This document shows positions 7,101 through 60,532 of a stretch of DNA of 64,000 bases, piece after piece (position 1 is the stretch's first letter; each line of letters starts with the position of its first letter). Source of the DNA: a virus (Duplodnaviria > Caudoviricetes). Below the pieces are notes generated by a model, which was not told where the DNA came from, did no database searches, and saw only the letters and a list, made by a program, of their open reading frames with translations. The stretch is taken from IMG/VR virus record IMGVR_UViG_3300033463_000005, positions 160,001 to 224,000 of that record; one strand, given 5' to 3'. The position numbers and the translations under genes were made by a program.

Positions 7101-10100
7101 AATGATCATCCGGTTCTGTTCGTAATACTGGATACAACTCCGGATCTGTCAATGTATTGAAATTATGACGGATCATATTGATTGTGATGGTTTCGTCTTG
7201 TTGTTGTACTCTTGCGGAACCAATGTAAATTGCGTGCATTTCTTTATTAAATATTTCAGTCAATGGTTCTGGAAGATTCGGTTCATTGTATTCATCCAAG
7301 AAATTTCGAACATTATCATCCGCGATTGTACATGTGATATTCTGCATCAGATATTTATGCATCACATTATAATCATTCGTGCCAAACCATTTTGCATGAT
7401 GTTCATCCACTTTTGCTTCGATCATGCCATGTGCACGAGAATGATCAATCGCAGTGATGATCAATGGGAATAAACTCATGCCGTCATCTGTATATGCATA
7501 TACGGTTTGACCAACATGGTATTTTCCACCAATGGATTCGATCACATTTTCGGATGGTGTAATATGAATCACTTCACATGCTTTGAAGAACATCGTCTTT
7601 GGTGGACGCAATTCTTGTGATATAATACCATATCGATTCAATTCATTGCATGGAATATAGATCGCATCATTCGGACCCTGAAGATCATCGGTATTTGGAT
7701 TTTGATATTCCGACATCTTTTCCAATGGTTTAAAATGATTACCCGCCAATAATTCATAATGCAATTCCGAATGTGGTTGATTCACAACTTCGTCATTTGT
7801 GTTTGTTGTAAATGTTTCATGTACATTCTGAACATTCAAACGAAGATTTTGTGAACCGATGTATTTGCGAATATCGTTCATGATATTGGACGATGATGAA
7901 ACTTTCTGGAATGACAACGTAATATCATTGAGTGTTTGCAATGTGGAACCTTCACCATCACAAATCACAAATGATACTGTAACATCAGAACCATCAAAGA
8001 ATGCAAATTCACATGTTGGAATTACGCGTGTAATCACATATTCCGAATTGACTTCCTCGTACATGATATGGAATAATATTGCGGAATCACCCGTTTTAGA
8101 AACATTCGGCAAATGCATATGATCATCAGAGTTTGCAATCGTCACATATCCATATACAGGTTTCTCTTGTAATGTAACAGAACCAAGTTCAACTTTATCG
8201 AGAATATAAATGTCGAACAAATAACTCTGCGCGATGCCATCACAATATGATGCGAGCGGAATTAAACTTGATGTGAAGACAGACCCATCAATGTCGTCCA
8301 ATGTTGATTGAATCAATGGTGCATTTGTTTGAATTTGATTGATGAAGATTTGCAAATGTGCTGCATATGTTTGGAATAATGTTTTGGTATATAAAACATT
8401 TGGATTATCAGAATACAAATTATGCAATTCATTCATTGTTGTCATATCCAATGTTTGTGCCCAATATTCCAATTGATGCAAACTCATATTGGTGTTGATT
8501 TCTTTTAATTGTAAATACAAACGACGAATCCGCGCGATTGCATACAGATCGAATCCGGTATAATCAAATACCTTTTGCATGATCATCAGAATTGTGGATA
8601 CCAGACCATACAGTTTGAATGATTTATTTGCCAAAGTATTTGTCCAAATATACATTTCAGACACTTGATCATATAATGTCTGTAATGTTTGATACAACGT
8701 GTCCTGTGTGATATCCTCAAACGTTGCAACAATTCCCGGTGTTTGTGACGATTGTGGATTAAAGTTGTCCCCACGTTCAGAAACAAATTCACGAATTGCA
8801 TTTGCATGTTTTTCCATACAATGCAATGTATTCTGAATTTCTGTCCGTTGATTCCAAATGGATGTGTAATTTGTAACAAGATTGTTGATGTGATTGTACA
8901 CATCACTCAAATACAACGAAACCATATTCGCAATCTTTGCATCATCATAATATTGATATTCATCCAGAATCATGGATTGAACGGGATCCGTATATTCCAC
9001 GTAATAATTCGGATCCACGCCGTCATTTGTGAACAGAATATGTTTCTGCGTTGGTTGATAACGATTCAATGTATTCCGATAAGATTGTGCATTCAACGGA
9101 AATACATTGTGATCTGTTCCAACAACGAATGGAAGACCTGCATACAATGTCACTTCGTTAGTATCCGGGAATGAACAGTGTGCTTTTTCAGGATCCGGAA
9201 TCCAATATGGACACGTCATGACAATACCATAGTTCACCAATTCTGTCTCCAAAGAAGAATCCATTTCATCAATTGACAGATCTGCATAGCGTGGATAAAA
9301 TTCCTTTTCCACAATCATATGAATCAGATATGCCAACAGTTGATCTTTATTATCATACATCATCTGCAATGTATAGAACATGAAGTTCAATGCAAACGGT
9401 GCACGAATGTCATCTTCATTCGCATCCAGATGATCGGATGATGCATTTGATGGTTCATAATTCATCATGGAAGGATATTCCAAGAATGTATCACCATTCA
9501 TCTTTTGCTGCAGAATCTTTGAAAGCACATTGATCTTCGCATTGTTGTAATCGTCCATATACATCATATTGGCAAACTTCTCCAACCGATTTTCAACATG
9601 CCAATATTTCACAAATCCAATATGACGATCAACTTCTTTTGTGAATTGATCAAAGTCAATCAATTGTTCAACGGAGAATGGTTCCGTTGTTTCTTCATGT
9701 GGATTCTTTGTGTCAGTATATAAGATGAAGAATTTATAAAGCTCATCGCCACGTAAATCATTTCTGATATAGAACGTATTTCCGATACCACTAAAGTGTT
9801 GGATAGTCGGTGTATCAAATAACCAACATGATTCCGCACGATCGTATTTCAATGTGATGAAACATTGTTCTGATATTGGCCGATTGAATCGATGTTCATT
9901 ATCCACGGCAAAGTAGTTTGTAAATGAATCTGCAATTACACGCAATGATGTAAACGGTTCCAATGCAAATGGTTGTGCAATTTCATCAATAAACAATTGG
10001 AAATTGTCATCAAACAATTCGTCGAACACATACTTTTGTACTTCGGAATATGTTGCTGTGACATTCCCTAACGTTTCAAACTTTTGAATCAATGTCTCAA

Positions 10101-11478
10101 ATCGTTTCAAATTGTCATGTGAAATCATGGATGTCACAATTGCACATTTCAAATAGGTTTCATATTGCGATCTCAATACTGAAGCGATAGACGATGAAAC
10201 CGATTTGATATTTGTTTCGATGTATTGTGATGTCGCAATAGATGGCCCAACATTGCAATCAACACCAAGTTTTGTGATTGTCGGTTTCAATGTTTCTAAT
10301 TGTGTGATCATGCCAAAACAATTCGTGAGAGTTCTGTATGACATGTCGGAAGGACGATCGACGCAGATTGGTGGTGTGCATACTTCATTCATCGCAATAG
10401 ATTCCGTATGCTGTAGGATAATTCTTCCACCGTCTTCATTTGCAACATGATTCCATTGATCATCATAAACAACTTGTTTTCCCATCATGTTGTAATAGTT
10501 GATTGCGGGGAAAACATTTGGAATCTCATGGATGTATTTTAATACATACACACGAACATTCAAATTCTTTGAGTTTAATTGTTGGATTTTGTTCAATGTG
10601 TGTGTTTGGATATTTTTAATATCCAAACCATATCGTGTTAAACAACCAAAGTTCGGAGCAACCAATACTGAATTCTGATATTGTTCGTCATACACTTCAA
10701 CCAAACAATTGCATCCAATCCATGATCGAACATCTTTCGTATTTTGGAACATTGTATACGGAATCGTCTGTTCATTTGTGATATAGATGGAAGGAACGAC
10801 ACCTTCGATTACTTTGGATGAATCCAATTTATAAATGATGAAATTTGGATCCGCGGTTTGATTCCATGGGATCTTGAAACGGAATCCTTTGTCATCAACA
10901 CCAACACTCCAATTTCCAACCATGAATCCATTTACAGTACATAGCAATGTGAATCCAAGAATCGAAGATATCTCATCCGATAAGAATTCATTTGCCGGAA
11001 CATAATATTTGGACTCTGTCTCATACATTTTGTGAAGCTTCTGACGAATGAATTCATCACGATCTCCAAAATGTAATTGATCATATGGCACATCAACAAT
11101 GAAATCTCCAAACCGATCTGTTGATACACTTTTCGAATCACCGTATTTCACGGATGCAATGACTGCATGTGTATTCACTAACATATCACTCATTGCATTC
11201 TGTAATGACATTTTATATGTTTCAATCAAAGATTCATTCAAATCTTCAAATGAATAATTGGAACGTTCCATCAAATCTGTTAACTGTTGGAATCCATAAT
11301 AATTACCGACAACACCGTACGGTTGTCTGTCGATCAATTGTGAATCCAACGCAATCAGATTCTGATAACGTTTGTTGATGGTTTCCCATTTTGTATCGTT
11401 GAATGATTTGATTCCATTTCTAGAACCCGTCAGATATTCATGATACTTATGAAACCATTGATTGTAATTCATAATCAT
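4168..11478 (-). CDS. very large virion (tail/baseplate-associated) protein with C-terminal BspA-type leucine-rich-repeat domain
   Basis: 2436 aa; C-terminus has AFLASCTNLDEV / AFIPGTAVKEI / AFTGTYSLERIYIN repeats and IAGAPWDA cap; YEFWVNGR motif; AAAGGAG RBS. Confidence 0.65.
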   Translation of the reverse strand: MIMNYNQWFHKYHEYLTGSRNGIKSFNDTKWETINKRYQNLIALDSQLIDRQPYGVVGNYYGFQQLTDLMERSNYSFEDLNESLIETYKMSLQNAMSDMLVNTHAVIASVKYGDSKSVSTDRFGDFIVDVPYDQLHFGDRDEFIRQKLHKMYETESKYYVPANEFLSDEISSILGFTLLCTVNGFMVGNWSVGVDDKGFRFKIPWNQTADPNFIIYKLDSSKVIEGVVPSIYITNEQTIPYTMFQNTKDVRSWIGCNCLVEVYDEQYQNSVLVAPNFGCLTRYGLDIKNIQTHTLNKIQQLNSKNLNVRVYVLKYIHEIPNVFPAINYYNMMGKQVVYDDQWNHVANEDGGRIILQHTESIAMNEVCTPPICVDRPSDMSYRTLTNCFGMITQLETLKPTITKLGVDCNVGPSIATSQYIETNIKSVSSSIASVLRSQYETYLKCAIVTSMISHDNLKRFETLIQKFETLGNVTATYSEVQKYVFDELFDDNFQLFIDEIAQPFALEPFTSLRVIADSFTNYFAVDNEHRFNRPISEQCFITLKYDRAESCWLFDTPTIQHFSGIGNTFYIRNDLRGDELYKFFILYTDTKNPHEETTEPFSVEQLIDFDQFTKEVDRHIGFVKYWHVENRLEKFANMMYMDDYNNAKINVLSKILQQKMNGDTFLEYPSMMNYEPSNASSDHLDANEDDIRAPFALNFMFYTLQMMYDNKDQLLAYLIHMIVEKEFYPRYADLSIDEMDSSLETELVNYGIVMTCPYWIPDPEKAHCSFPDTNEVTLYAGLPFVVGTDHNVFPLNAQSYRNTLNRYQPTQKHILFTNDGVDPNYYVEYTDPVQSMILDEYQYYDDAKIANMVSLYLSDVYNHINNLVTNYTSIWNQRTEIQNTLHCMEKHANAIREFVSERGDNFNPQSSQTPGIVATFEDITQDTLYQTLQTLYDQVSEMYIWTNTLANKSFKLYGLVSTILMIMQKVFDYTGFDLYAIARIRRLYLQLKEINTNMSLHQLEYWAQTLDMTTMNELHNLYSDNPNVLYTKTLFQTYAAHLQIFINQIQTNAPLIQSTLDDIDGSVFTSSLIPLASYCDGIAQSYLFDIYILDKVELGSVTLQEKPVYGYVTIANSDDHMHLPNVSKTGDSAILFHIMYEEVNSEYVITRVIPTCEFAFFDGSDVTVSFVICDGEGSTLQTLNDITLSFQKVSSSSNIMNDIRKYIGSQNLRLNVQNVHETFTTNTNDEVVNQPHSELHYELLAGNHFKPLEKMSEYQNPNTDDLQGPNDAIYIPCNELNRYGIISQELRPPKTMFFKACEVIHITPSENVIESIGGKYHVGQTVYAYTDDGMSLFPLIITAIDHSRAHGMIEAKVDEHHAKWFGTNDYNVMHKYLMQNITCTIADDNVRNFLDEYNEPNLPEPLTEIFNKEMHAIYIGSARVQQQDETITINMIRHNFNTLTDPELYPVLRTEPDDHSVWDQEREVFQNEITQTMTKISSTAMQIQALSIALQHATTKAEKDEIKIQIENAQMKMKYYDDNVKRFKLYLEQLETPTTWYNVISYEAALTYINNGRAYISHVYRPHIQDLMYSDQVQIRLYDMDTQSWIDSNLYTVDETIEDGLLFDHYHEFDTNDVLTSLTITFVDSAFASRRILIFFAYDNSDVFDDIQLNQDTCQVRFRPVVTIDPSHYTDNLYANIRIRKHYDTDEAYAVSQLDPVPEDFPYQEGVLLKRYQRSGLHTEGSTTRFCNMTVESDGSEYAIDDFDVYVPNPMKDTSIPQQQMQISYVTSTKIDINGFEPNKRITLICIQNSSEKSFDGGASNIIFRGRTTDDDIEIIDSNLTTDATQTYLCTVIPDESHHMSGGLISIKRTCEWVTISNITNWMKLISPTYRLIPDTCILVPNGITLDEHAIIRLSNHYKLNSDEFIEDPFVYYYDQTNDVRYPIADIRKNDIHTRLIVDPSDNPSINSIRSNYLHVSRYVASHIPENGVIDLTGYVPTPLSRDRYEFWVNGRYVNDDNHLTILSPTTFQLRNLTSLRNLEVIELVDDLEDSVITQNGTCYIDINGKTYPTYQLASLQNANIIDQKIQFKFNQNTVSKLDQYVPDQIRITNNVDIEHDILDYIVPPQNLSYDDTTNHPTINGVTLQNETSTSLGFVEMNHETILNMMDDVWKREIMTGGMQSSRDVQNLTRAQSFQQLKCHVYKDKYYDVYAIGSNQFTYTLYISNTPDAPITDTENVVKIIPAILPTTHVALSFKYSGKWVLSTMPNTYPIQLPEHEYDPEPLPTTAIYIRDCNTRAIVQEFADGPLVYDNAKTWFRNESDPNALYEFVITPAYRYNENYLETETGSLSGMQNLKKFFLYTTREHYMPNAFLASCTNLDEVHWSSVVERIDPAFIPGTAVKEIHINASPNCSIHNYAFTGTYSLERIYINQPAGSIAGAPWDAQNAEVIWLG

Positions 11479-12578: not shown

Positions 12579-15500
12579 TTACAAATTGCCTTCCCAAATT
12601 CTTTTTACTTTTTTCTTCAATTCAATTAATATCTTATTTGCCGATGCAGTCACGAGCATACTCGGAATCATACGACCCAAGATAGAACGTGGGGATACAA
12701 ACATACTGATTTCTTCACCAGGTTCGGATTCCGCATACGGCTCCAATCCTTCAGGAACAACTTCCGAAATGACTTGTTTGGATGCAGCGTACACAACACA
12801 TTTATCTCCAATTGACACTTCGTCAGAATGTTCGATATAGATTTCAATTAACACATCACAGTTGATGCCTTTGATGGATGATGCTCGTAATGGTTGCGTT
12901 GGAAGTGAATACAACGTTCCGAGTTTATACACGCCATCCGTCTTATCATATTTATCCAACGTTTTTCTTTTTTCAATGTTTTCTTTGAAATGATTGTCGA
13001 TGATATCAAACAAAGATGGAGACAGTTTGTCCATACTCTTGATTGTATACATGCGAATATCCACAACCCGTCCTGCATGCTTTGATTTGATCGTACGTTT
13101 TGCAGTATCCATGATGTTGGAATCTGTTTGGAATGCTTTCAAGAAATCGTCAACCGCTTTATCGCCGGTATCACCTAAACCAAACACAATCAACGGATCA
13201 CCGATTTCAACCTCATCTCCGACTTTCACAATGAAATCAACATCATCGGTCGCATTTAACTTTGATGCTTGACACATTGTGACTGCAGATGACAACCGCT
13301 TGGACATCTTATGTGTCATCAAACCAGCGTCTTCATATGTAGAATACAAACCGGCGAACGCAACTTTTGCCAATGGTCCAATGTTCAATCGAACCATACC
13401 GGATGAATCTTTCGAGAAGAACTTTTCGTGATATGCCAAGATATCATTCTTCTCAAATGTATCATCTTTCTCAAAATTGGACACGAGTTTATTATCCACA
13501 TAGAAACCGGAACCAGGATTGAATGAATACCGATCAGAAACAGGGATCGCTTGTTTCTTACCAGACTCATATTCAACGACCATGTATCCATTTGAAATAT
13601 CAATGACTTTACCATTCTCTTTTGCGGTCACAGCAAATTCCGATGACAAATAAGATGGTACAATTTCATCAATACCATTTGAAACCAGAACCGGTTCCGC
13701 GTCTGCGGTTGGAAGAATATGAGATGTTTGCGATGTTGCAATTGCATTACGAATAGAATCATCACGAGATACAGTTCCCGGTGTTAACAGTTCGGAGAAT
13801 GATGCTAATTGCAAATCGTTGTAATCCGTTGATATGTCTTCCGTTGATGTATATCCACGCAACGATTCCACCTTTGGATCAACAACAAGCTGACGTGTAA
13901 TACCAACCGTACCATTGTTTGGAGACGACAGTGCGAGTTTTCCAATCATGGATTCCTCATAAGAACGTTTCGGCAATGAGTATGCTTCTGGTTCATTAAC
14001 ACCATGGAATCCTTTCTTGGAGACATTCTCTCTATCATGCAATTCAACCATTGGATTCAATGCGGAAATACCATTCACCGTTTCAATCTTGATCAATGTC
14101 TGAATTAGATCATTTGGATTCCATGGCAATTTTGCATCCGCCATCTTACTACCAATCTGGTTGTTATACCGGGAAATCGCTTTTGCCAACAAGCCATGAA
14201 TAATTGCAGGAATGATTTCGGATGCTCGAACACGATACAACGAGGAACTCGTTTCACCTTTGAAGTGATTGTCTGCCAACATATTTGCAGCATAAATCAA
14301 CATATCACAAATATCGGTCGGCAAATGATAATGCTGACACACATCTTCTGTGATTGCATCGATAAAGAAGTGATAATTTGTTCGGAAAATAGATAACTCC
14401 GAGAATTGTTTGAAGAACATCTGATTGAAGATATCAATGAAAACAGAATTGGAATCAAACACGGTGGAATCCAGATCGGTTGTATTGTATTCTTTCGGAT
14501 TCAAACGGAAGAAGCCGTTGAACAACAACTGATTGTTCACCGTGTTTTGAATTGCCAATGTTTTATCTTTGAATGGGATTTTAATGAATCCGGGAGCATC
14601 TTCATTTTTTGTAATGTATTTATACTGCGCACCAGACCGTTTTAACAACGAAGACAAACCTTCCCATGCAGCGATGCCAACACCAACCGGCATTTTGATA
14701 TTACCGATCTTCATTTTGGCATACATGGAAATCTTTGTCGGTTTGGTTTTGTTGAACACTTTCCACATTTCTTCTGGTAAAATTTGTGATATGATTTCTG
14801 TCAAGCTTCTACCACGACGATCCAGACCAGTTTCTGTATTCAAAACAACCGGAACCTGATTGATGGAACCACAACAGAATTCATTTTCTTGAACAGTTAC
14901 AAAGCCATACTCACGCAAGCATTGTTCACGGTTAAACAGAATCTTGCATTTTTGAGAATCGTCGATGTAATGCAGCCAACGTTTTGCATACTCATCATAT
15001 TCGATTGTCGAAACGAATCGAGAGTTTGTTGCCGTGGATGAACCATACCGAACATACGGGTTTGTTCCATCCGGTTTATTTGCGGATGCGACAGCTTTCA
15101 ATAATAAGGAAACATCAACCAATGATTTTGTATCATAACGGATGATATCAATCTTGTTGTAATTGGTCGTCAACATCACACGCTTCTGATTAATCTTCAG
15201 AATCGGAATGGGGAAATCTTGTTTTCCAATATTATTCCATGTTCCATTATAATAGAATCTACCATTCATCAATTTTGGAACATAAATATTGATATGAGAT
15301 TTCGATCCAGTTTTTCGATTCACAAGTGATACTTTCCAGTTGTGCATCAACGATACTGGTGTTGAGATATCTTCCACATCAATATTTGTAACATCGAATC
15401 CCTCTGGAAGTTTTTTCAATGTCATGAATGTCGCAACGATATCCTGATCCAACATTTGTTCCTCATATGCTTCTTGCATATTTGCAAATGATGATCCTTG

Positions 15501-16775
15501 CATTGCACCACGGTTTGTTGTTGTAATCTTCAACGGACGAACCGGTGGTGGTTTCGGGATATCCGTGATGGTTTTCATTGCATTGATGTTTAAACTCTTT
15601 AAACGAATCTGTCCAATATTTTCACGCATCTTTGTTTCACGTGGTGATGTCAAAGTTTGCATAATACTCTTTTCATCCGAAACAGCACGTGAATCCGCAA
15701 TCTCTTTCGATGCTTGATTGATGATATCGTTTTCAACCGGAGTATCACCACCAGTTTCCAAATCACTCGCAATTCGTTTATAATCCGAAACTGCATTTTG
15801 ATTCGGATTAATGCGATGAATCAATGATGCATTGATCTGTAATGTCTTTGCAGAATACAATGTATCTTTTTCTGAACGCGCATCATCCACACCCAATTTC
15901 TTTTTCAACTGTTGCAATGAATTCTTTAATCCAGAACCACCACTCGATGCGGTTGTCGGTTGACCTTGGTCTTCTTCGGTTTTGTTCGCTTGTAAATCAT
16001 TCAACATTTCATCAACGCTTTCATCTGATGAAGTTGAATGAGTGACACCTTTGAACGATGTACCAATTTTGTCAACCATTGTTTGCAGCAGCGGTTGCTT
16101 TTCAGCATTCATCATCGGGAAATGCATCTTGTAATCTGTAGTAGATGAACGGAAGATCAATGTGATATCAGATTTGACATTCTGATTCGCATCGTTCAAG
16201 AATGATTGCACAACACCGTTTACAAGATCGGATTTGCAAGCATCCTTATTTTCCGAATCATAAATACGAAAACGATCTGTATTGATAATCAATACTTTCT
16301 TTTGTGCTGGAGAACATAAACCCATCATCGTGGACATCATTTGAACTGCATGCTGATGGATGTATTCAGTGGATAATGCACGATAACCAGAATTGAATTT
16401 CATCAACACATCGGAGAACGGAATGTAAGCATTCTCTTTCAATGTTTTCATACTCGTCGGAGGAATGATTTTCAATTGTGGAACTAGCTTTTGTTTCTGG
16501 ACATATTCCACTTTTCGTTTATATGATTCATTTGATAATTGATATTTGAAATCCATCGTTCCAATTTTACCATGAATAGAATATGGAATCACAATAGATT
16601 TGAAATTGATACGTGGAGGTGGAACCCGTTTGATCAATTCAATATCATATTCAAACGATCCAGACAAAAGAAAGACAGCAGCACCATCTTTTTGATCTGG
16701 TAACTGATATGGTGCTAACACTGGTTGCAGTGTTTTACCATTCACAAGATTGGTTGCTTCTTGAATGAATTGCAT
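12579..16775 (-). CDS. phage multisubunit RNA polymerase beta-like subunit (probable virion RNAP, phiKZ gp178-like)
   Basis: YED motif (TYEDAGL), GDKxxxxxxxK (GDKCVVYAASKQVIS), SPRSILGRM, IATSQTSH, GTVGITRQL; ends soon after the RM motif as in split phage beta subunits; begins MQFIQEA. Confidence 0.9.
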   Translation of the reverse strand: MQFIQEATNLVNGKTLQPVLAPYQLPDQKDGAAVFLLSGSFEYDIELIKRVPPPRINFKSIVIPYSIHGKIGTMDFKYQLSNESYKRKVEYVQKQKLVPQLKIIPPTSMKTLKENAYIPFSDVLMKFNSGYRALSTEYIHQHAVQMMSTMMGLCSPAQKKVLIINTDRFRIYDSENKDACKSDLVNGVVQSFLNDANQNVKSDITLIFRSSTTDYKMHFPMMNAEKQPLLQTMVDKIGTSFKGVTHSTSSDESVDEMLNDLQANKTEEDQGQPTTASSGGSGLKNSLQQLKKKLGVDDARSEKDTLYSAKTLQINASLIHRINPNQNAVSDYKRIASDLETGGDTPVENDIINQASKEIADSRAVSDEKSIMQTLTSPRETKMRENIGQIRLKSLNINAMKTITDIPKPPPVRPLKITTTNRGAMQGSSFANMQEAYEEQMLDQDIVATFMTLKKLPEGFDVTNIDVEDISTPVSLMHNWKVSLVNRKTGSKSHINIYVPKLMNGRFYYNGTWNNIGKQDFPIPILKINQKRVMLTTNYNKIDIIRYDTKSLVDVSLLLKAVASANKPDGTNPYVRYGSSTATNSRFVSTIEYDEYAKRWLHYIDDSQKCKILFNREQCLREYGFVTVQENEFCCGSINQVPVVLNTETGLDRRGRSLTEIISQILPEEMWKVFNKTKPTKISMYAKMKIGNIKMPVGVGIAAWEGLSSLLKRSGAQYKYITKNEDAPGFIKIPFKDKTLAIQNTVNNQLLFNGFFRLNPKEYNTTDLDSTVFDSNSVFIDIFNQMFFKQFSELSIFRTNYHFFIDAITEDVCQHYHLPTDICDMLIYAANMLADNHFKGETSSSLYRVRASEIIPAIIHGLLAKAISRYNNQIGSKMADAKLPWNPNDLIQTLIKIETVNGISALNPMVELHDRENVSKKGFHGVNEPEAYSLPKRSYEESMIGKLALSSPNNGTVGITRQLVVDPKVESLRGYTSTEDISTDYNDLQLASFSELLTPGTVSRDDSIRNAIATSQTSHILPTADAEPVLVSNGIDEIVPSYLSSEFAVTAKENGKVIDISNGYMVVEYESGKKQAIPVSDRYSFNPGSGFYVDNKLVSNFEKDDTFEKNDILAYHEKFFSKDSSGMVRLNIGPLAKVAFAGLYSTYEDAGLMTHKMSKRLSSAVTMCQASKLNATDDVDFIVKVGDEVEIGDPLIVFGLGDTGDKAVDDFLKAFQTDSNIMDTAKRTIKSKHAGRVVDIRMYTIKSMDKLSPSLFDIIDNHFKENIEKRKTLDKYDKTDGVYKLGTLYSLPTQPLRASSIKGINCDVLIEIYIEHSDEVSIGDKCVVYAASKQVISEVVPEGLEPYAESEPGEEISMFVSPRSILGRMIPSMLVTASANKILIELKKKVKRIWEGNL

Positions 16776-16822
16776 GATTATACACTTCCTTACAAACAAA
16801 ATTAAAAGGAGGGAGATCTTAT

Positions 16823-18822: not shown

Positions 18823-21792
18823 TTAATAGCAAGCCCAGTCAAACACAGCTTTGGAAAAATCACACTTTGAAAGTGCTTCTTTTGTAATAAAGATTTGACC
18901 TGTACCACAATCTCCCCACATAATCGGTTTTGTTGAGTCTAATTGCAGAAGCAGGAAGCAATTTTCTGATGTAAATTTCACATCATCATATGCTCTGAAA
19001 TCGGATTGTGTGAATCCCGGATATCCTCCGATCTTATCACCATATTGATCAAATATTCCTTTACGATCAATTTGTTCAGAAAAACCTTTCGGAATCATAT
19101 CGATGATCTTATCATAAGCTTTTGAATCATTCAATTTCTTTTCTGGATCCGAAACATTTTCATTCCATGTTTCTATAAAAATCTTTTCATAATCATCAAT
19201 TTCATTCCAGGACCACGGTGCATTACAATTTTCCGATTTCTTAAATGTGACAATGTATTGATCATTCTTTTCGCCAAAGCAATAAACTGAATCACGGTCA
19301 TCATATATGGTCATATCAATCTGATTCACGAGTTCTTTTGTCTTATCCAGTTTTTTCATATCATCGGAAGAATAATACAGAACTCTGTATCGATTATCAT
19401 TCTTATTCCAACGACCAGAATTCATATTGCGGTCTAACCAGAATTGCATAATTCCATTTGATGGTAATTCTGATAATCCCGGAACATCCGCGAAATTAAT
19501 CTGGATAACAAATCGTAACTGTTTTCCATTTTTATCTGTTGGAATTTCTGCAATAAATGGCGGAATACCACCAATGACACTTGATGTTGGTTTGACAGAA
19601 TCGGGGTTGGCTTTTGAAGACCACGATAACTCAACACATGGTTTCTTCGTCTTATTCTCGATTAGCTTCAGAATCTTCTTGAACTCATCTGCTGAAAGTG
19701 GAAATTCATTTGGTAACGATGGACCTGATGTTTCGGTTTGTTCCACCTTTTTTGATTTACCAAAAATCTTATCAAAGAAACCATTCTTTTTTATAAATGC
19801 CAATCTATCAAGACTAACATTTTTCTTTATTACATCAGGAGCATGTTTTCTTTTCAAAAACAATGCTGCTTCTTGAACAGGTTTCGGATTCTTCGACTCA
19901 ACGATTTTTGCGACCGCGGTTGCTTCTGAAACAAAAGCTTGAATCAAACGTTTCACAACAGAAACGGAATTATCATCAACATCAGAACGCATGAGCGCAA
20001 TTAAATCAACGAGGACATGATTCAGACGTCTTAATTGATTCCGTTCGGATTCATCAAAGACTTTCTTCATACCGGAAGCTTTATGAACAACACGATTTAA
20101 TTTCTTACCTTCCTTGCGGAATTGGGAGCATAATTCAGTGATATCCATATCATTGTTATTCAGGACACCCATTGTTTTTCTGAGGTGAATATCCAGCTCC
20201 TTACCGATATTACCTCTCGTCAGAAAAAAAGCTTCTTGCGCTAGCTCCTCTTCTGTACCTTCAGTGGATGTATCTCCGGAATTCATGAAATCTTTCAGCT
20301 GTTGAATTGTCATGCCCTTGAGCTTCTCTGTACCTTGAGCCAAAAGCTCATCAATTGTCATATTGTCGAAATCAAGGTTTGATGTATCTTCAACAGGTTC
20401 CGCACCGGTCGAGCCTTCATCACCGATATCAGCAGCCAACTCTTCATCGGTTGGAGCATCCGTTGTATCCGAAAGATCGACGTCATTTGTGTCAGTTGCA
20501 TCTGTTGTACCATTGTCATCCATCAGGTCATCGATGTTAACATCAGAGGAATCATCAGTATTGTCAGCCTTTGTATCAGCCGCAACCTTTTCTGCAATCT
20601 GATCAGAAACGTCATTGGTCTCAATCGCTTCCTTGTTGTCGTCCGTTGCAGGAGCATCAGTTGTCACATCTGCACCGGCATCAGGTGTTGCTTGTGCTTG
20701 ACCATCTGCTGGTGGTGTATCGATAGAAACATCTGCTGCATTGGAATCTGTTGCAGGAGCTTCATCCGGATTACCAAAATCAATCGCCTCTTGGAAGAAA
20801 CGACTCGGTCTTGCCGTTGGATGTTCTGCCTCATAAGCCATCTCTTGAATGGCTTCACGTTTTGTAGTCGCATGCAGTTTCTTGATATCAGCTTCGGAAG
20901 TCTTTGTGAAGTTCTTCTCCGTTGCATTGTGAGAACCTTTGATCGGAACAGTCCATGTGATATATGGATATGCCTCCGAACCTTCTTTACCATCAATCTC
21001 AAAACCAAAGGAAACGCAATATTTATCCATCGGCTCAACCGGGACAATAACCTCTGTTGGTGTAATCTTCTCCCAAATGTCATAAGGACGTTCTACACCC
21101 AGTTCAGCACCATGTTGATTAAATAAAATCTGACGAAGTTGTGTGCCAATATTATCAAAATACTTCTGAAGAACCTGAATACTCTCAAGCTGCTTCTTCA
21201 GAATCCGATGTTTCTTATCGACCTGCCAACCAATCGGAAGTTTGACATAATAGGAACCTTTGTCAGGATGCTTACCAAAGTCAAGCGTAATTCTAGAAGG
21301 AACAGAATTATCCGAAATGTTAATTTTACCAAATCCAAACAGACCTTCCTGAATGATTTGATCCGTGTACTTTTTGTATGCAACAGCAGCTTCTGCAGTA
21401 ACTCTCTCCTCAAAAGCAGCATCTGTTTCACGGGCAAACTGTGTCATACTATTGTATGTTTCGGTGTAAATCTGATCGTATGTCTTCATGCCAAAATGCT
21501 CAAGAGCAAGATCAGATTCCTGAACTGTTGCATCCATCGGGATATTCGTCACACGACCATCCAACAGGTTCATTTCAACAGAATCAATCTCGATGTCGTC
21601 TTCCAGAGGGATATCGATCTTCGTGTAAGGACGGCTGCTACCAGCAGATGTACCCTTCATAGACAGATCATCCAGCTCTTGGAATAGATGTGCATACTCG
21701 AGAATTGCTTCATTCATTTGAGTCTCCGATTGAGACTCATCAGTTTCAGTATGCATTCTTGCCTGAAGCTCTTTGCTGATGTAATCAAGCAT
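18823..21792 (-). CDS. putative internal head protein with multiple QE sites and C-terminal DUF1963/YwqG-like domain
   Basis: VQES, IQEG, IQEM, FQEA, AQEA, VQEA; long acidic linker; C-terminal FVIQINF...KIGGYPGFTQ...LLLQLDS...MWGDCG...DFSKAVFDWAC is the YwqG pattern. Confidence 0.75.
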   Translation of the reverse strand: MLDYISKELQARMHTETDESQSETQMNEAILEYAHLFQELDDLSMKGTSAGSSRPYTKIDIPLEDDIEIDSVEMNLLDGRVTNIPMDATVQESDLALEHFGMKTYDQIYTETYNSMTQFARETDAAFEERVTAEAAVAYKKYTDQIIQEGLFGFGKINISDNSVPSRITLDFGKHPDKGSYYVKLPIGWQVDKKHRILKKQLESIQVLQKYFDNIGTQLRQILFNQHGAELGVERPYDIWEKITPTEVIVPVEPMDKYCVSFGFEIDGKEGSEAYPYITWTVPIKGSHNATEKNFTKTSEADIKKLHATTKREAIQEMAYEAEHPTARPSRFFQEAIDFGNPDEAPATDSNAADVSIDTPPADGQAQATPDAGADVTTDAPATDDNKEAIETNDVSDQIAEKVAADTKADNTDDSSDVNIDDLMDDNGTTDATDTNDVDLSDTTDAPTDEELAADIGDEGSTGAEPVEDTSNLDFDNMTIDELLAQGTEKLKGMTIQQLKDFMNSGDTSTEGTEEELAQEAFFLTRGNIGKELDIHLRKTMGVLNNNDMDITELCSQFRKEGKKLNRVVHKASGMKKVFDESERNQLRRLNHVLVDLIALMRSDVDDNSVSVVKRLIQAFVSEATAVAKIVESKNPKPVQEAALFLKRKHAPDVIKKNVSLDRLAFIKKNGFFDKIFGKSKKVEQTETSGPSLPNEFPLSADEFKKILKLIENKTKKPCVELSWSSKANPDSVKPTSSVIGGIPPFIAEIPTDKNGKQLRFVIQINFADVPGLSELPSNGIMQFWLDRNMNSGRWNKNDNRYRVLYYSSDDMKKLDKTKELVNQIDMTIYDDRDSVYCFGEKNDQYIVTFKKSENCNAPWSWNEIDDYEKIFIETWNENVSDPEKKLNDSKAYDKIIDMIPKGFSEQIDRKGIFDQYGDKIGGYPGFTQSDFRAYDDVKFTSENCFLLLQLDSTKPIMWGDCGTGQIFITKEALSKCDFSKAVFDWACY

Positions 21793-54302: not shown

Positions 54303-54566
54303 TTATAATCCAAATGCTTTTGGACCGATTACTTGTGAAGGTGGTGGATTTGTAAGACCCGGTGTACAATGAGCAACCCATGGGGACATTGCATCAACTG
54401 CAGGAGTGTTTGGATTCTCATCGAAATTTACCGGAAATGGTTGACCAGTTCCTGTTGGAAAGTGACCCTTCTCCATGTCTTTCAGAATCGTTGTGAAATC
54501 GGTTGTTCCCGCATAATTATGCGCAGGCGTCATAATGGTTGATTGTCCGGATGAATAAATATCCAT
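54303..54566 (-). CDS. small proline-rich hypothetical protein
   Basis: AAAGGAGG RBS; early motif ATATATGATT at ~54589-54598. Confidence 0.75.
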   Translation of the reverse strand: MDIYSSGQSTIMTPAHNYAGTTDFTTILKDMEKGHFPTGTGQPFPVNFDENPNTPAVDAMSPWVAHCTPGLTNPPPSQVIGPKAFGL

Positions 54567-54615: not shown

Positions 54616-57600
54616 TTACATCACAGATGTTGCATTGGCATTATTTACGCTTGCGGTTTTTCTTGCATCAGATTGTTTCATTTCTTCCCATGCAGTTCTG
54701 TTAATTTTAACCAGCTCATTCATGTCGGAAGCCAATGCATTAACAAACGCTTTTGCACCTTTGACACAAACTTTCATACCATCGAGTGCGTCCTTATATG
54801 CACGCATATTCGTTTGATCTTCTTTCACACTCTTCATACTATCTAGAATTGAAATCATGTTATTCAGAAGATGTTCCCACATTTTGTGCCAATCTTCTAA
54901 TTTATTATAAATATTATCAGAACGATATTCTCCAGTCATTGGGTCAAATCCGCCAACTCTTCCACGATTATTAGTAACATTATTTGTACCGAAGCAGATT
55001 TTGTCCAACCAGTCGGATGTTGCTTGGTCGATAACATATTTGATTCGTTCCAGATTTGTATGTTCAACGATTGAAATACCTTTTGCGATATTATCAAATT
55101 TCATCGGACCCAATGCTTCAATTTTAGCCTGATCCAATCTTTTCTGACCATTACCGTTTTTAACTTGATTGCCGCAAAGATATGCCAAATGTTGAATGAT
55201 CGTTGTGTATTTAAGAAGACTCTCATCGTCTATGAGAGGCTGCCCAGCTCTGGCTTTTGGATTAAATAGATAGAAATGAACACCGTCTTTGAACAAAGCA
55301 CTCCACGTATGTCCATTCACATCATGAATCGTTTTATATTTATTCTTTTTGGATTTGATTTTGAAAATCAAATTCTTAAACTTTCTGATGATTTGTCCCA
55401 ACAGTCTCAGCAAACCATTGAGAGCATTTCTTAAAATACCGATAACACCCTTTGGAGATTGCGTCCAGTCTCCACGAGACATATCAGAAGCACCGGGAGC
55501 GTTGATTGTTTCGGTGTAGAATCCTTCCATAAATGCACTGATATCACCGGATATTTTCTTTTTGTCAACTGATTTAGTTTCGAGAATTGTCATCATTTCA
55601 TCGAAATTCTGCGAGAAGAATTCCATTGCCATTTCAGCAGTATGGACATCCTCGGTCAATTCTTCGATGTCAATATCTTCAACATCGTCATCATCAGAAA
55701 CAGAACCACGAATATGGAATTTATCAACCGCAGTATGCATTGCCGTTGTTTCATCCATACCCATCTCAAGAAGTTCTTCGTATTCCTTTTTGACATCAGG
55801 ATCTTTTGGTTCATACTTTTCACCGGTCATTTCACATTTCGCAAACAACAATTGTTCCATGTGGAAACGTTCCTCGTTTGCAATATCTGCGTACAAACGA
55901 CGAAGAACATCCACATTGGTTTCTTTTGCACCATCCATGTATTCATTCATGGCATCAGCTTCAGAAGCCATCAATTTCATCAGAATTCCAATTTCTTTCG
56001 GATCATATTCATTTTGTTCATCTGATACATCGGAACCAAATTTACCGAGATCGATGTCATCTGTATTTACAGTTTCATCGGCATCGGTTTCGATTGTTGT
56101 TTTTTCTTCTTTGGTTTCCTCTTTCAACTCATCGTCATCCAGATCGATATCTCCGACGGTGATTTTTTCAACACTTTCTTCTGCTTCTTGAACAAAGCGG
56201 GACGGGATCATGACATGCGCCTCCTTCACAGGTTTAAATGGTTTTGCGGTTCCATCATACATCATTTTTGTATGAGTGTATATCCAGTTCATGAATTCTT
56301 TGATGGGTGTACCATAATCAATCTTTTCGTCTGTATAATCCCAAACGCCAAAGTTGATTGGTTTGTTCTCCACATCAGCAGAACATTCTGCGACGTAATC
56401 AAAGATTTCATTTAATGTGTTGAATGTACGGCGACGCATATGTCCCCATTCATCCGTAACACGCTTGAATGCTCCTTCGAGATAAATGAATTTTCCTTCA
56501 TATGGAACGACACAAATCGTATGTGTATTAATCGGTTTATTATTCGTCGTTGTAAACGACATGAAGTATTTTTTGTATGTTACACCATATGCTTGGAGAT
56601 ATCCAGCCTCATATTCCACAAAGTCAAAGCAGTTACCTCCACCGGCTTCATCAACTTCTTGACCAGAATGGAATACCCAATATTTATTGTAATCCGCGTC
56701 AGATACGTTTCCAGTCATCAAACGACCATCACGAATCAAACCATATTTGAGTCGTTTCAAATCGTTGGATAACCATTGGCAAACTTTGTCTGTTGAGTAA
56801 TCAAACTTTGTCGATTTGCTTAATACCGATGGTGGAACAATCCATCTCCATTTGAATGTGAAGTATCTGCGATGATGCTTTTCGTTCTTTGCATTCTTAA
56901 CCGTGGATTTCATTTTCATTGCGGAGATTTGATCAACACGAATGGTTCCATATAGTTTCATACGAACCGGTTCAGTGATCCAAACTTCACGCGTGACATT
57001 TGTGTCCCATACTTTCTTTTCTTGGATCAACTGTTTTGTTGTTTTATGTTTGTAATCCTTGAATGGTTTTTCAGGGACGTACACATACATTTTGTCGAAA
57101 CGCTCTGGTGTATCACGTTCCATGTTTACCATGATACCATTCAATGCACCCTCAATGGATGAAGAAAAACAAACACGTGGAGACGTATTGTCTTCAAAAT
57201 AATTGTCATTCGGATCATATGGATCCAAATATTCCGGAACACGTGGTTGGAATATCTGCCCATCGAAATGTGATTTTTGTGATACATGGAAAACCAGATT
57301 ATCAGAGAATGGGTTTACACCATTCTTGATATCCTGGAATGCTCCTTCTTGGATGGTGTCAATAAAACCCTCGGTGAATAACTCACGATATGGTCCGTGT
57401 CTAAAAGCATTCTTTAATTTTTCAGGAACATAGTGGTTTGCCCAATCTTTTAGAACAGACTTGACAAGAATTCCAACCGATCGAATATCATTGAGTGCTT
57501 TCTTGTCTTCGGGTGTTTCAATTTTATATGGTAGATTTTTGACTTTCAAAAGTGGATTTGTTTCATATACATTTTTTGCAGTATCACGAATGTCTGTTAA

Positions 57601-59439
57601 AATGTTTATCAATTCCTCATGCGGAAATGTAAAGGATCCTTCATGAATTTTCTTTCTGTCTTCTGGTAATTTATCAAAATCATTAATAACCCAAATGATA
57701 CCACGAATTTGAATAATAGTTTCATCAAGAAGATCCCGCCATACTTCTGGCGCCGACACCGACATATCCCAATTATCATCGTTGCCGACATCAAATTCTT
57801 CAATGGATTTTATATTCCATGAACTTTCCGGAATGGATGCCCAATAATAATATAATTTTGACATTGCGAACAATATTTTGCTCGTCAATTTTGTTGTAAA
57901 TGTTCCATCTTCCTCGTCAATTTCCCAATAGTCGTGATTGTCTGTAGAAGATTCTTGAAAGTTTTCTACATCAGGTCTGATGATATATCGAACCGTTACA
58001 GGTTGCACATCCTTGATCGGGACTTCATTGAGATCAACGAGAAGAGCTTCTTTTGATTGATCCATCCATTCGTATTTTGCAACATGATCTTTTAATTTAG
58101 AAATATCAATTGCATATATGAAACCATTACCAGTCAATTCAAATGGTTCAAATGATTTACCATCATAATCGTGAACACGAACATGGACAACCTTAAGAGG
58201 TTCATCAAGACCATCCGTCTGGTTCCATTCATCATAATCCGAATTAAATGATCGGATTCCCATTCGATAGAGTTGTCTCACCCAAGGTCTATCGGCGGAA
58301 AAAATACTTGCAATGCCTTTGTAAGGTGTGATAAACAATTGTTTATCAATATCAATTTTGTCATTTAATTTCTTTGCACACCCAAAGTACACAATATCAG
58401 GTTTATAATTTTGAATAGGGATCGGTTTGTCTGAAGCATAATTATCTTTTGCTGATTCTTGAACGGGATCATCGGACGCAATCATTCCATGATCTTTCGC
58501 ATATTGTTCATCTTCATCACAAAGCATTCCATGTTCTCTCATATATGGGATGTCTTTCGATTCATCCCACGGAACCAGCATTGTCATGGAATTCATTTTC
58601 GTTAACAATGCTTTATTCAAAGGACGATCATCCAAACGACAGATGTATGATTCAGAGTAATCAATATTACCAAAATAATCATTGAATATTTTCAATGATG
58701 ACATTGGTTCAAAGATTCCTTGTTGTGGGTCCAGAATGCTTGGGATGTTAAAACTGATCAACATGAATTCATGCCCACCGGTTCCACCATTCCATTTCAC
58801 ATGAACATAGAATCGAGCATTTGGCTGTGTCATGATCCAATCGTTCAGTTCTTGGAAATTCGGGAATTCTTTTCGATCCGGATTCATGACAATACTTTCA
58901 CCATATACATCGAATGCAGGATCACGTGGAGAATAGATTGGTCGTGGTAACACATTGATTCCACGGAAGTTTGCTTCTGCACACCATGTACACAGTTCAC
59001 AATTCTGATTTCCCGTTGGCGGTTTCTGATCTGCAACATATTTTGCATGAATCCGATTAGCAATACTTTTCGCCAATGCCAAAGGATCCGTTTGATTTGA
59101 TACACCTTTTACACGTTTCATCAATTCGTCTTCTTCATAATATGGAGCCAATGTATGTGGAGGAGCATTTCCAATACTGGTTCCATCTGACATTGGGGGA
59201 ACTTGTTCTTGTGCAAACAGTTTTACTTTCTTCCATCCAGATGTATCAAGATTATATTCACGGGCACGACGCAGTATTTTACGTGCCAAGGGCTTTCTAT
59301 CAGCGCCCTTTGCATATCCAACTTTCTTTGCAGCATCTTCAATATGAGCAGCATCATTCAGTGGGAATTTACGTTTATCTGGAATTCCGAATTGGGAATC
59401 TTTTAAACTGTTTCGCTTTTCAGTTGACATTTTAGCCAC
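54616..59439 (-). CDS. multidomain putative head-packaged effector polyprotein
   Basis: AAAGGAG RBS before GTG 59439/ATG 59430; QE-delimited domains: DUF6582-like, papain-fold, two ART-like, transglutaminase-like, ferritin-like, helical C-terminal. Confidence 0.7.
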   Translation of the reverse strand: MAKMSTEKRNSLKDSQFGIPDKRKFPLNDAAHIEDAAKKVGYAKGADRKPLARKILRRAREYNLDTSGWKKVKLFAQEQVPPMSDGTSIGNAPPHTLAPYYEEDELMKRVKGVSNQTDPLALAKSIANRIHAKYVADQKPPTGNQNCELCTWCAEANFRGINVLPRPIYSPRDPAFDVYGESIVMNPDRKEFPNFQELNDWIMTQPNARFYVHVKWNGGTGGHEFMLISFNIPSILDPQQGIFEPMSSLKIFNDYFGNIDYSESYICRLDDRPLNKALLTKMNSMTMLVPWDESKDIPYMREHGMLCDEDEQYAKDHGMIASDDPVQESAKDNYASDKPIPIQNYKPDIVYFGCAKKLNDKIDIDKQLFITPYKGIASIFSADRPWVRQLYRMGIRSFNSDYDEWNQTDGLDEPLKVVHVRVHDYDGKSFEPFELTGNGFIYAIDISKLKDHVAKYEWMDQSKEALLVDLNEVPIKDVQPVTVRYIIRPDVENFQESSTDNHDYWEIDEEDGTFTTKLTSKILFAMSKLYYYWASIPESSWNIKSIEEFDVGNDDNWDMSVSAPEVWRDLLDETIIQIRGIIWVINDFDKLPEDRKKIHEGSFTFPHEELINILTDIRDTAKNVYETNPLLKVKNLPYKIETPEDKKALNDIRSVGILVKSVLKDWANHYVPEKLKNAFRHGPYRELFTEGFIDTIQEGAFQDIKNGVNPFSDNLVFHVSQKSHFDGQIFQPRVPEYLDPYDPNDNYFEDNTSPRVCFSSSIEGALNGIMVNMERDTPERFDKMYVYVPEKPFKDYKHKTTKQLIQEKKVWDTNVTREVWITEPVRMKLYGTIRVDQISAMKMKSTVKNAKNEKHHRRYFTFKWRWIVPPSVLSKSTKFDYSTDKVCQWLSNDLKRLKYGLIRDGRLMTGNVSDADYNKYWVFHSGQEVDEAGGGNCFDFVEYEAGYLQAYGVTYKKYFMSFTTTNNKPINTHTICVVPYEGKFIYLEGAFKRVTDEWGHMRRRTFNTLNEIFDYVAECSADVENKPINFGVWDYTDEKIDYGTPIKEFMNWIYTHTKMMYDGTAKPFKPVKEAHVMIPSRFVQEAEESVEKITVGDIDLDDDELKEETKEEKTTIETDADETVNTDDIDLGKFGSDVSDEQNEYDPKEIGILMKLMASEADAMNEYMDGAKETNVDVLRRLYADIANEERFHMEQLLFAKCEMTGEKYEPKDPDVKKEYEELLEMGMDETTAMHTAVDKFHIRGSVSDDDDVEDIDIEELTEDVHTAEMAMEFFSQNFDEMMTILETKSVDKKKISGDISAFMEGFYTETINAPGASDMSRGDWTQSPKGVIGILRNALNGLLRLLGQIIRKFKNLIFKIKSKKNKYKTIHDVNGHTWSALFKDGVHFYLFNPKARAGQPLIDDESLLKYTTIIQHLAYLCGNQVKNGNGQKRLDQAKIEALGPMKFDNIAKGISIVEHTNLERIKYVIDQATSDWLDKICFGTNNVTNNRGRVGGFDPMTGEYRSDNIYNKLEDWHKMWEHLLNNMISILDSMKSVKEDQTNMRAYKDALDGMKVCVKGAKAFVNALASDMNELVKINRTAWEEMKQSDARKTASVNNANATSVM

Positions 59440-59466
59440 GCATAGCAGCTCCTTTCTAAACAAAGT

Positions 59467-59504
59467 TACCGAGACGTTTCGATTGTCAAATAAACAACCG
59501 CATA
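59467..59504. promoter_or_regulatory. back-to-back putative late promoters
   Basis: Minus AACGTCTCGGTA (59467-59478) and plus AACAACCGCATA (59493-59504). Confidence 0.5.
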
Positions 59505-59557
59505 AATATGTGATATATTTTATATATCTATCCAATCTGAACGGAGTGTGAACCTAT

Positions 59558-60532
59558 ATGAATGAATTAATTCAATCGATTAAAACAGTGGATCGGTGTC
59601 TTGAATCATCAGACTTTGAAGTCATTCAGAGTCTTTTGAATTGTTATTCAAAAGCAATGTCTGTATTGGAATATTGCGATGATACTACAGATGTTTCATC
59701 ATTTGAGATTTTCCAAGAGTCTTTTAAAGATGATTTGAAGAAACCTATTTTCGGCGATAAGAGTGAAAGTGTTGCAAAACGAATCCTTATGGTTTTGCCG
59801 CGTATTATCGCAAAACTTATCACGTTGCTAACAAATATGATTTCGCGTTTTAAAAAATCAGAAAAGCGGGCAGAGAAAACCGCTGAAGATATCAAACAAA
59901 CAGTCGAAGATATTCCGGAAGAATCTAAAGAAAAAACTATTATGCTTAATTTATACTATACACCAAATGTGACTGGTTTGGATTATGTCCATGAGATTCA
60001 TAAAGCATATGATGGTATCCAGGGTGTTGTTTTTGGTGCAATATTTACCCAAAAAGATGGAAACACAACTATTTCTAAATATTTGGAAATATTGCGAAAT
60101 GAACGAGATCTCGAAAGGATTGCACAGCGTCTACAAGGAATTGATACACTCACTCGTCTTGAAAAACGCTCACAAACTCTTACTGCCGATGACATAGCCA
60201 GATATGTCGAATCAATGTTGGATGAATCGGACGAAGAGTCTATAGATGTTATAATAGAATATATGACCAAGGATTTAAAAGAAATCAAATCCATGATTGA
60301 ACGAGAAGTGTCCAATGTAGATAACCAAAACATGAACCCAAAATATGCAGCGCGTGATAGAACTTCTAGTAGACGGAAATGGAGATTCCATTCACCAGAA
60401 GAAATTCAGCGGGTTATTGATTTCATCTCACAAATTGTCAGTCAATTATCCGAGTTTCAAGCAAAATATTGGAAAATGAAAACTGACGATCTCAATGAAC
60501 TGCAACGTGGCGCTGATGCATTAATAAAATAA
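59558..60532 (+). CDS. putative internal head protein (QE-site family)
   Basis: Acidic N-terminal propeptide-like region, FQES, then a basic amphipathic helix. Confidence 0.6.
   Translation: MNELIQSIKTVDRCLESSDFEVIQSLLNCYSKAMSVLEYCDDTTDVSSFEIFQESFKDDLKKPIFGDKSESVAKRILMVLPRIIAKLITLLTNMISRFKKSEKRAEKTAEDIKQTVEDIPEESKEKTIMLNLYYTPNVTGLDYVHEIHKAYDGIQGVVFGAIFTQKDGNTTISKYLEILRNERDLERIAQRLQGIDTLTRLEKRSQTLTADDIARYVESMLDESDEESIDVIIEYMTKDLKEIKSMIEREVSNVDNQNMNPKYAARDRTSSRRKWRFHSPEEIQRVIDFISQIVSQLSEFQAKYWKMKTDDLNELQRGADALIK

Follow-up and report, generated by a model that had tools for sequence, protein, structure and literature searches.

The window analysed here, a stretch of 64,000 nucleotides, covers bases 160001–224000 of the 258,509-bp genome of one uncultured phage (IMG/VR record IMGVR_UViG_3300033463_000005). 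Our subject is a long gene on its minus strand (54616..59439) that encodes a polyprotein: at least six modules and four enzyme-type folds in one phage chain, with a conserved ferritin-like carrier at the C-terminus. The reading frame is open from 54616 to 59535, and its stop codon occupies 54616–54618. Translation yields 1607 amino acids from a GTG at 59439, as in an identical database copy (P0002), or 1604 from the first ATG at 59430. Translation probably begins at the GTG, which sits 9 nt past an AGGAG. We number residues from ATG 59430 (P0002 numbering is +3) and give all parts of the gene by window coordinates on the minus strand.

The original prediction named five Gln-Glu motifs in this chain as putative head-protease sites lying between distinct modules. 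We found all five in place: FAQE↓Q (E75, Glu codon ending at 59206), PVQE↓S (E325, 58456), NFQE↓S (E493, 57952), TIQE↓G (E695, 57346) and FVQE↓A (E1082, 56185), where the arrow marks the predicted cut. Three further pairs had gone unlisted – NFQE↓L at 193, LIQE↓K at 803 and SGQE↓V at 924. The resulting eight Gln-Glu pairs compare with 3.4 expected from composition, and the pattern [VILFMAY]QE[SAG] occurs four times versus 0.2 in shuffled sequences (0/5000 shuffles reached 4). All eight pairs are encoded CAAGAA, which is only mildly unusual (about 0.04) with 76% CAA and 87% GAA usage. We considered the junction as a DNA-level recombination signal and dropped the idea, since only CAAGAA is common to the junctions and this is the preferred codon pair.

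To place the sites relative to homology boundaries, we used a word-indexed search that returned 116 relatives of 880–2435 residues, several on contigs of 240–295 kb. Hosts of this clade are probably Bacteroidales, and one relative is binned as Paludibacteraceae. BLAST segments start and end, in query numbering, at residues 75, 117, 308–329, 485–498, 690–694, 875–891 and 1060–1082, and the breakpoints with the 116 relatives cluster at 75, 325, 493, 695 and 1082, with module order varying. In an all-against-all comparison, 23% of breakpoints fell at most 5 residues from a Gln-Glu pair, versus 4% under random placement. At [VIF]QE↓GAFQD, module 5 is joined to dozens of upstream sequences that are unrelated (before residue 694 of the query), among them GNAT ends and zinc ribbons. 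Counting only relatives whose alignment spans the site, Gln-Glu or x-Glu persists at the named sites in 66/71 (E75), 35/55 (E325), 22/22 (E493), 41/43 (E695) and 50/54 (E1082); the unlisted pairs at 193, 803 and 924 are kept in 2/82, 1/91 and 22/96.

AlphaFold models built on alignments of the relatives place sites 493 and 695 in stretches with a predicted local distance difference test score (pLDDT) below 50, and site 1082 in the last blocks of its model (mean 52–59). Pairs 803 and 924 lie within helices of pLDDT >90. Gln-Glu pairs inside folded domains, the arrangement that would speak against a role as boundaries, were thus found only among the three unnamed, non-conserved pairs and at none of the five named sites. 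Homology breakpoints, low-pLDDT linkers and conservation across relatives together establish the five named sites as true module boundaries, as had been claimed.

Comparison of the relatives also bore out the expectation that modules come and go at these sites. Cutting the relatives after hydrophobic-Gln-Glu produced recurrent families of 78, 55–65 (~63), 98–104 (~100), 162–187 (~168), ~354–392, ~230–270 and ~305 residues, which occur in 105 different ordered pairs among the 116 relatives, occasionally with 5-residue spacers between double sites. Further beads seen in whole-gene relatives are GNAT, DUF6985, SUKH and additional transglutaminase-like ones. Relatives of 2174, 899 and 582 residues occupy the same locus, in which the gene is followed by an ~85-residue open reading frame (ORF) and then a ligase. 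On a 265,694-bp contig the locus is split into three adjacent genes, of 1117 (GNAT, DUF6985), 405 and 582 residues; the 582-residue product is the carrier only, and its cargo resides in the other two, which lie upstream. Cargo modules are gained, lost and reordered upstream of the carrier, at motif sites. We found no other copies of any module elsewhere in this genome.

The chain opens with module 1 (residues 1–75; 59206..59439), a small basic helical domain that ends at FAQE↓Q. It belongs to a recurrent 78-residue family (F4, 43 proteins) and is usually the first bead. The original prediction had called it DUF6582-like, and a match to that Pfam family does exist at a weak level (E 0.14 in the query; 26.5 bits in the relative P0061, against a cut-off of 27.3), so that module 1 weakly resembles DUF6582 in sequence. 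Our literature search found no mention of DUF6582.

Module 2 (residues 76–325; 58456..59205), which ends at PVQE↓S, matches PF15644 (Gln_amidase, papain fold toxin 1) in 32/32 aligned relatives, with a best E of 1.4e-8. Against the cut-off of 24.1 bits, the query itself scores below (17.9) and the relatives P0020 (28.0) and P0061 (32.5) score above. The cysteine of NQNC (C144), the histidine of GGHEF (H220) and a D/Q position are invariant and correspond to C69, H145 and D159/Q161 of alignment A2. This sequence evidence supports the predicted papain fold, of a Tox-PL1 or glutamine-deamidase-like type.

Module 3 (residues 326–493; 57952..58455) is a compact alpha/beta domain that ends at NFQE↓S and belongs to a recurrent family of 162–187 residues (34 proteins). 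It has no family match at the sequence level. Its model exceeds pLDDT 85 across residues 7–164 of the module, and the only domain-specific matches in structure comparison (VIA) are of the Tpt1/KptA type: 9ld3 at Z 7.8 (84 aligned, root-mean-square deviation 2.7) and 7yw2 at Z 7.2, scores near the background level of the comparison tool. The model suggests membership of the ADP-ribosyltransferase (ART) superfamily, in its Tpt1/KptA branch. Module 4 (residues 494–695; 57346..57951), a rare bundle with six known family members, ends at TIQE↓G. In a joint model of modules 3 and 4, its helices span residues 190–360 and are flanked by linkers (165–187 and 362–370) of pLDDT <50. It had been described as helical and of unknown type; the helical character holds, and its structure matches are generic helical bundles only (Z about 9). 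Foldseek against PDB gave no significant match for modules 3 and 4.

Module 5 comprises two domains that model as one unit (predicted template modelling score 0.85). The first, module 5a (residues 696–878; 56797..57345), matches PHROGs 10766 and 5043, and its domain-specific VIA matches are all ARTs: Arr (9iaf, Z 5.6), TreX (5.4), pertussis S1 (5.2), PltA (5.0), Scabin (4.8) and CARDS (4.7). Invariant or near-invariant in the alignment are H20 (FHVS), R35, R57, S61/S63 (PRVCFSSS) and E120 (TREVW), candidates for the catalytic H-Y-E or R-S-E residues of ARTs. Module 5a does not match the ART families of Pfam; on the model, an ART fold is probable. An exhaustive profile search assembled 1351 representatives at E ≤0.001 of this family, which carries no name. 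Its distant members are stand-alone proteins of ~150–200 residues or are fused to GNAT, SNF2 helicase, NUDIX, HD, metallophosphatase or SUKH domains, the typical company of polyvalent proteins.

The second domain, module 5b (residues 879–1082; 56185..56796), carries the motifs GGGNC, NTHTI and YLE and ends at FVQE↓A. VIA matched it to CPR-C4 (7pjo, Z 11.3, 152 aligned, root-mean-square deviation 3.0), vasohibin (Z 9.9) and LapG (Z 8.7), and Foldseek gave probabilities of 0.98–1.0 to vasohibin and LapG; relatives show weak matches to PF04473 and PF01841. C54, H90 and E105 of alignment A4 are invariant and correspond to a putative Cys-His-acid triad. The model thus supports the transglutaminase-like cysteine-protease fold that had been proposed from motifs. 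The module motifs quoted in the original prediction are indeed present in the order described, from NQNC/GGHEF through FHVS/PRVCFSSS/TREVW and GGGNC/NTHTI to EERFH in the ferritin-like segment.

Broader searches added little to these assignments. Profile searches against PDB sequences with modules 2, 3, 5a and 5b returned nothing useful; ESM Atlas searches found only unnamed viral or bacterial clusters, and BFVD only uncharacterised jumbo-phage proteins. A tblastn search with the whole protein against cultured phages reached only Klebsiella jumbo phages, where a relative of module 5a stands alone. In Klebsiella phage FBKp24 (MW394391.1, 147627–148154) this relative lies near a nicotinamide phosphoribosyltransferase gene, a neighbour that fits an NAD-using module 5a enzyme. 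Duplication within the chain was also considered and rejected: hhalign shows no similarity between the two ART-like modules (3 and 5a) or between the two modules of cysteine-protease fold (2 and 5b).

The remaining ~520 residues (1083–1604) form the most widely conserved part of the polyprotein, which we call the carrier. It begins after the last junction with an acidic linker (residues 1083–1121; 56068..56184; net charge −18 over 58 residues), followed by a ferritin-like domain (residues 1122–1240; 55711..56067) with a mean identity of 79% over 38 relatives. The profile of this domain matches, in PDB, the bacterioferritin-like 9viw (3.7e-6), Pyrococcus encapsulated ferritin (EncFtn; 5n5e, 1.6e-4), an encapsulin with fused EncFtn (2e0z, 2e-3) and Myxococcus EncB (0.03). 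Its putative di-iron ligands E1157, Y1164, E1187 and H1190 are invariant in 38 sequences, and their spacing (7, 30 and 33 residues) equals that of EncFtn E32/Y39/E62/H65, with which the positions also align. By profile and ligands, this part of the carrier is identified as an EncFtn-type half-ferritin domain – a sharper assignment than the ferritin-like bundle of the original prediction, which it bears out.

The rest of the carrier (residues 1241–1604; 54619..55710) is an acidic stretch followed by a basic domain, as seen in its charge profile. The basic C-terminal domain is probably helical; no fold or family match was found for the last ~360 residues. Relatives split this remainder into two families, F3 (~230–270 residues) and F2 (~305 residues). 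FYTE↓T (E1307, DNA 55510–55518) aligns here with a Gln-Glu junction of most relatives.

A search for shorter proteins returned 199 forms of 395–880 residues, many of them carrier-only and on contigs of 230–277 kb. JGI labels some of the carrier-only proteins rubrerythrin. Carrier-only forms of 510–700 residues begin with leaders of 8–19 residues that end in the motif: the N-terminus of P0369 (514 residues), MPSRFFQE↓ESEE, matches the last junction of the polyprotein, PSRFVQE↓AEES. Stand-alone module 5 proteins likewise have an ~36-residue leader ending in [FI]QE↓GA, with only x-x-Glu↓Gly in more distant ones. Together with the split locus, the carrier-only forms and their leaders suggest that the ancestral unit was a leader plus carrier, to which beads were added upstream, each with its own joint, and that fusion and fission are tolerated. 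One element of the original prediction – packaging through a single targeting domain – was not established. Conservation marks out the C-terminal carrier and not module 1, and a single N-terminal targeting domain is argued against by the leaders that single-module relatives have of their own and by the locus split into three genes.

EncFtn offers a possible role for the carrier. Its di-iron site lies between two chains, and its decamer formation is metal-driven (PMC5012862). By analogy, we propose that the ferritin-like domain probably oligomerises the carrier. A bolder version, which we hold to be doubtful although possible, is that the carrier is the phage counterpart of encapsulin cargo, forming metal-bridged rings in the prohead of an HK97-fold capsid that act as a hub for loading exchangeable enzymes, which the protease then releases. 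Were this so, the carrier would connect the loading of encapsulin cargo with that of internal proteins in phages as a living link, and capsids could carry a redox-active iron site. Neither an encapsulin gene nor a C-terminal localisation peptide turned up, and no search aimed at either was made.

We next consider which enzyme would cut the junctions. The genome encodes a head protease (genome 114613–115584) that matches Peptidase_S80 (PF20034) at 28.7 bits against a cut-off of 23.4 and phrog_3014 at E 1.9e-11; its best cultured match by tblastn is the head maturation protease g079 of Yersinia phage phiR1-37. In the protease itself, CFVQE↓A precedes the catalytic core and TVHQE↓G lies 71 residues short of the C-terminus. 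The major head protein is encoded at genome 104683–106971 (phrog_20655), and this capsid protein, which has no match in cultured phages, shows SF[LMI][VIY]QE↓SYN near residue 120, without variation in 120 relatives. Across the proteome the strict motif occurs 54 times versus 11.7 ± 3.4, a 4.6-fold excess, and is densest in the 100–120 kb head-gene cluster and a few long ORFs elsewhere. Characterised S80 proteases (phiKZ gp175, SPN3US gp245) cut each substrate in several places, after the Glu of a three-residue motif, and also shorten themselves at the C-terminus (PMC5694885, PMC10052503). Given that the genome has a protease of the S80 family and that the capsid protein carries this motif at its conserved N-terminal site, we assign the junctions, as the original prediction had, to the head protease, which probably cuts them.

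The polyprotein could instead process itself through one of its own modules of cysteine-protease fold (2 or 5b). Two papain/transglutaminase-fold domains with intact Cys-His-acid residues are on hand, and built-in processing by a zincin-like peptidase is the published model for polyvalent proteins (PMC5512222). Against this, the junctions persist in relatives that have neither domain (the P0096–P0117 class and the carrier-only forms), and the capsid protein, the protease and other products of the head cluster bear the motif as well. Head proteases of the S80 and T4 types, moreover, are known to cleave after Glu where P3 is hydrophobic or small. We regard self-processing as very improbable.

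Another reading has the chain remain whole, as an uncleaved multidomain polyvalent protein in which the Gln-Glu linkers serve as flexible joints or recombination seams. Packaging without processing is indeed known for some polyvalent proteins, among them the N4 virion RNA polymerase (PMC5512222), and the common CAAGAA at 8/8 pairs might be taken for a seam, though it is the preferred codon pair and its six bases are too few for guiding recombination. The motif is invariant at the N-terminal site of the capsid protein and flanks the protease core, and the leaders ending in the motif on single-module and carrier-only relatives suit removal and not joining. We judge an uncleaved chain to be unlikely.

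The reading we favour, and consider somewhat probable, is that the locus encodes a swappable set of capsid-loaded proteins, made as a chain of modules, cut by the head protease and injected; cutting, packaging, ejection and the enzyme activities are the steps that we infer. The precursor would consist of autonomous modules on short disordered linkers, each ending in hydrophobic-Gln-Glu followed by Gly/Ala/Ser, and would be built into the prohead core. There the S80 head protease would cut after the Glu of each junction, as predicted in the capsid protein and in the protease itself, leaving about six folded proteins loose inside the capsid. The ferritin-like domain would probably oligomerise the carrier inside the head. 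On infection, the released proteins would exit with the DNA and modify host proteins or defences.

Several observations weigh against this proposal. At the junctions P3 is V/I/F in 74% and P1′ is G/A/S in 67%, where the Gln-Glu cut pattern sets P2 and P1 by construction and leaves P3 and P1′ free; the prevailing V/I/F at P3 differs from the A/S/G of characterised S80 enzymes, so that the specificity is extrapolated. The neighbours of the gene serve DNA metabolism (ligase, phosphoesterase, SbcD), and the head cluster is elsewhere. Of the predicted enzyme activities, the two ART-like calls have gained moderate fold support only, at Z 7.2–7.8 (module 3) and 4.7–5.6 (module 5a), which is within a range that may mean a common arrangement only. 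In SPN3US, finally, the known cleavages take off N-terminal propeptides, most of which do not stay in the head (PMC10052503).

This last point underlies a further alternative, in which the upstream modules are a giant multi-part propeptide: they would be cut, but only the carrier would stay in the head, and the pieces would act in assembly or in the producing cell, or be expelled. Of 14 mapped SPN3US cleavages, 13 remove N-terminal propeptides, which reach 254 residues, are multiply cut and are mostly cleared (PMC10052503), and the carrier is the only universally conserved part of the polyprotein. The upstream pieces, however, are folded domains of 168–387 residues with invariant catalytic-type residues, unlike disposable propeptides, and both ARTs packaged in heads and polyvalent proteins are well established (PMC9503650, PMC5512222). 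We consider this alternative improbable, if a shade less so than an uncleaved chain.

The proposed set of capsid-loaded proteins shares features with several known systems. Polyvalent proteins of phages and conjugative elements combine two to fifteen effector-type domains per chain in mosaic architectures (Iyer et al. 2017, PMC5512222). As in those, one long chain here joins unrelated effector-type domains (ART, GNAT in relatives, peptidase folds) in extremely mosaic architectures, with predicted delivery alongside the DNA. In contrast to them, the joints carry a head-protease motif, with no reliance on a built-in peptidase, and the family is defined by its conserved C-terminal ferritin-like carrier. 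A Pfam search of the query and six relatives found no zincin-like MPTase and no other signature polyvalent domain, though distant versions could escape it. The ferritin-like carrier and the head-protease motif at the joints set this family apart; the theme of multi-effector mosaic chains is known from polyvalent proteins.

For the predicted cutting, a close parallel is offered by phiKZ, 201phi2-1 and SPN3US, whose ejection and inner-body proteins are processed by S80 enzymes (gp175/gp245). Here, too, the protease is of the S80 family and has candidate self-cleavage sites, the cuts are predicted to follow the Glu of a three-residue motif, substrates hold several sites, the capsid protein has one near residue 120, and a neighbouring gene weakly matches phiKZ internal head proteins. 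The motif itself differs, with V/I/F at P3 and Gln at P2 in place of A/S/G and then X, as does the setting – N-terminal propeptides there, and here the linkers between folded, shuffled enzyme-like domains.

In phage T4, Alt and IPI–III have a capsid-targeting sequence that is removed by gp21, and Alt is the classic head-packaged ART. The single-module relatives resemble Alt and IPI–III in their short N-terminal leaders ending at a Glu site, and the relatives include an ART-fold protein that is presumably head-packaged, as Alt is. Unlike in T4, many modules are chained per gene, and the protease is of a different family. The MuF-fused polymorphic toxins of temperate phages, reportedly described by Jamet et al. 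in 2017 and mentioned in PMC9503650, similarly join a conserved head-associated carrier to variable toxin-like domains; in these MuF is N-terminal with one C-terminal toxin, whereas here the carrier is C-terminal to many upstream modules with protease motifs between them. Head-packaged ARTs as such are known (PMC9503650).

With EncFtn proteins (5n5e, Rhodospirillum rubrum EncFtn and M. xanthus EncB), which are cargo of encapsulin shells, the carrier shares a two-helix half-ferritin, Glu/Tyr/Glu-x-x-His ligands at identical spacing and a proposed location inside an HK97-fold shell; unlike them, the phage domain is one part of a longer carrier of 520 residues. That procapsids may hold cargo-like proteins has been put forward in a 2026 paper, though only as a hypothesis (PMC13669383), and an EncFtn-type carrier would bear on the kinship of encapsulin cargo with phage scaffold and internal proteins (cf. 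PMC13669383). In a limited literature search we found no paper on this family or on phage head proteins that contain a domain of the encapsulated-ferritin type.

If the head protease does cut the joints, a single conserved locus would constitute a plug-in system in widespread phages of 230–295 kb. Any motif-bounded domain placed upstream of the carrier would become a capsid-delivered protein, which would explain the fast turnover of host-manipulating enzymes and would make virion cargo predictable from sequence alone in uncultured jumbo phages. The arrangement would also provide a natural design rule for loading foreign proteins in large capsids.

The surroundings of the gene contain further candidates for the same processing. 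Downstream (3′) lie an 87-residue ORF (54303..54566, minus strand), an NAD-dependent DNA ligase, a phosphoesterase and an SbcD-like nuclease. The 87-residue ORF, located between the polyprotein gene and the ligase, is conserved in sequence and position in three relatives; family searches gave no match, and similar sequences exist. The divergent neighbour on the other side (59558..60532, plus strand) encodes 324 residues with IFQE↓S at residues 50–54. Its match to the phiKZ internal head protein family (PF12699, phiKZ_IP) is weak, with E 2e-4 and 21.1 bits under a cut-off of 27, and starts at IFQE↓S.

Other long ORFs of the genome, all on the minus strand and given in window coordinates unless marked otherwise, were also inspected. 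A 2436-residue ORF (4168–11478) has a weak C-terminal match to BspA-type leucine-rich repeats, with neither a PHROG match nor the strict junction motif. Between the capsid and protease genes, a 1272-residue ORF (genome 107637–111455), to which no Pfam or PHROG assignment could be made, holds eight Gln-Glu pairs, several of them [VI]QE↓[AG]. A multisubunit-type RNA polymerase beta subunit (12579–16799) starts with MQFIQE↓A, a 6-residue leader ending in the motif, as would be expected if the subunit is virion-packaged. Finally, a 989-residue ORF (18823–21792) contains seven Gln-Glu pairs, five of which fit the strict motif, and a C-terminal DUF1963/YwqG domain (E 3e-40), and is probably a second protease-jointed chain.

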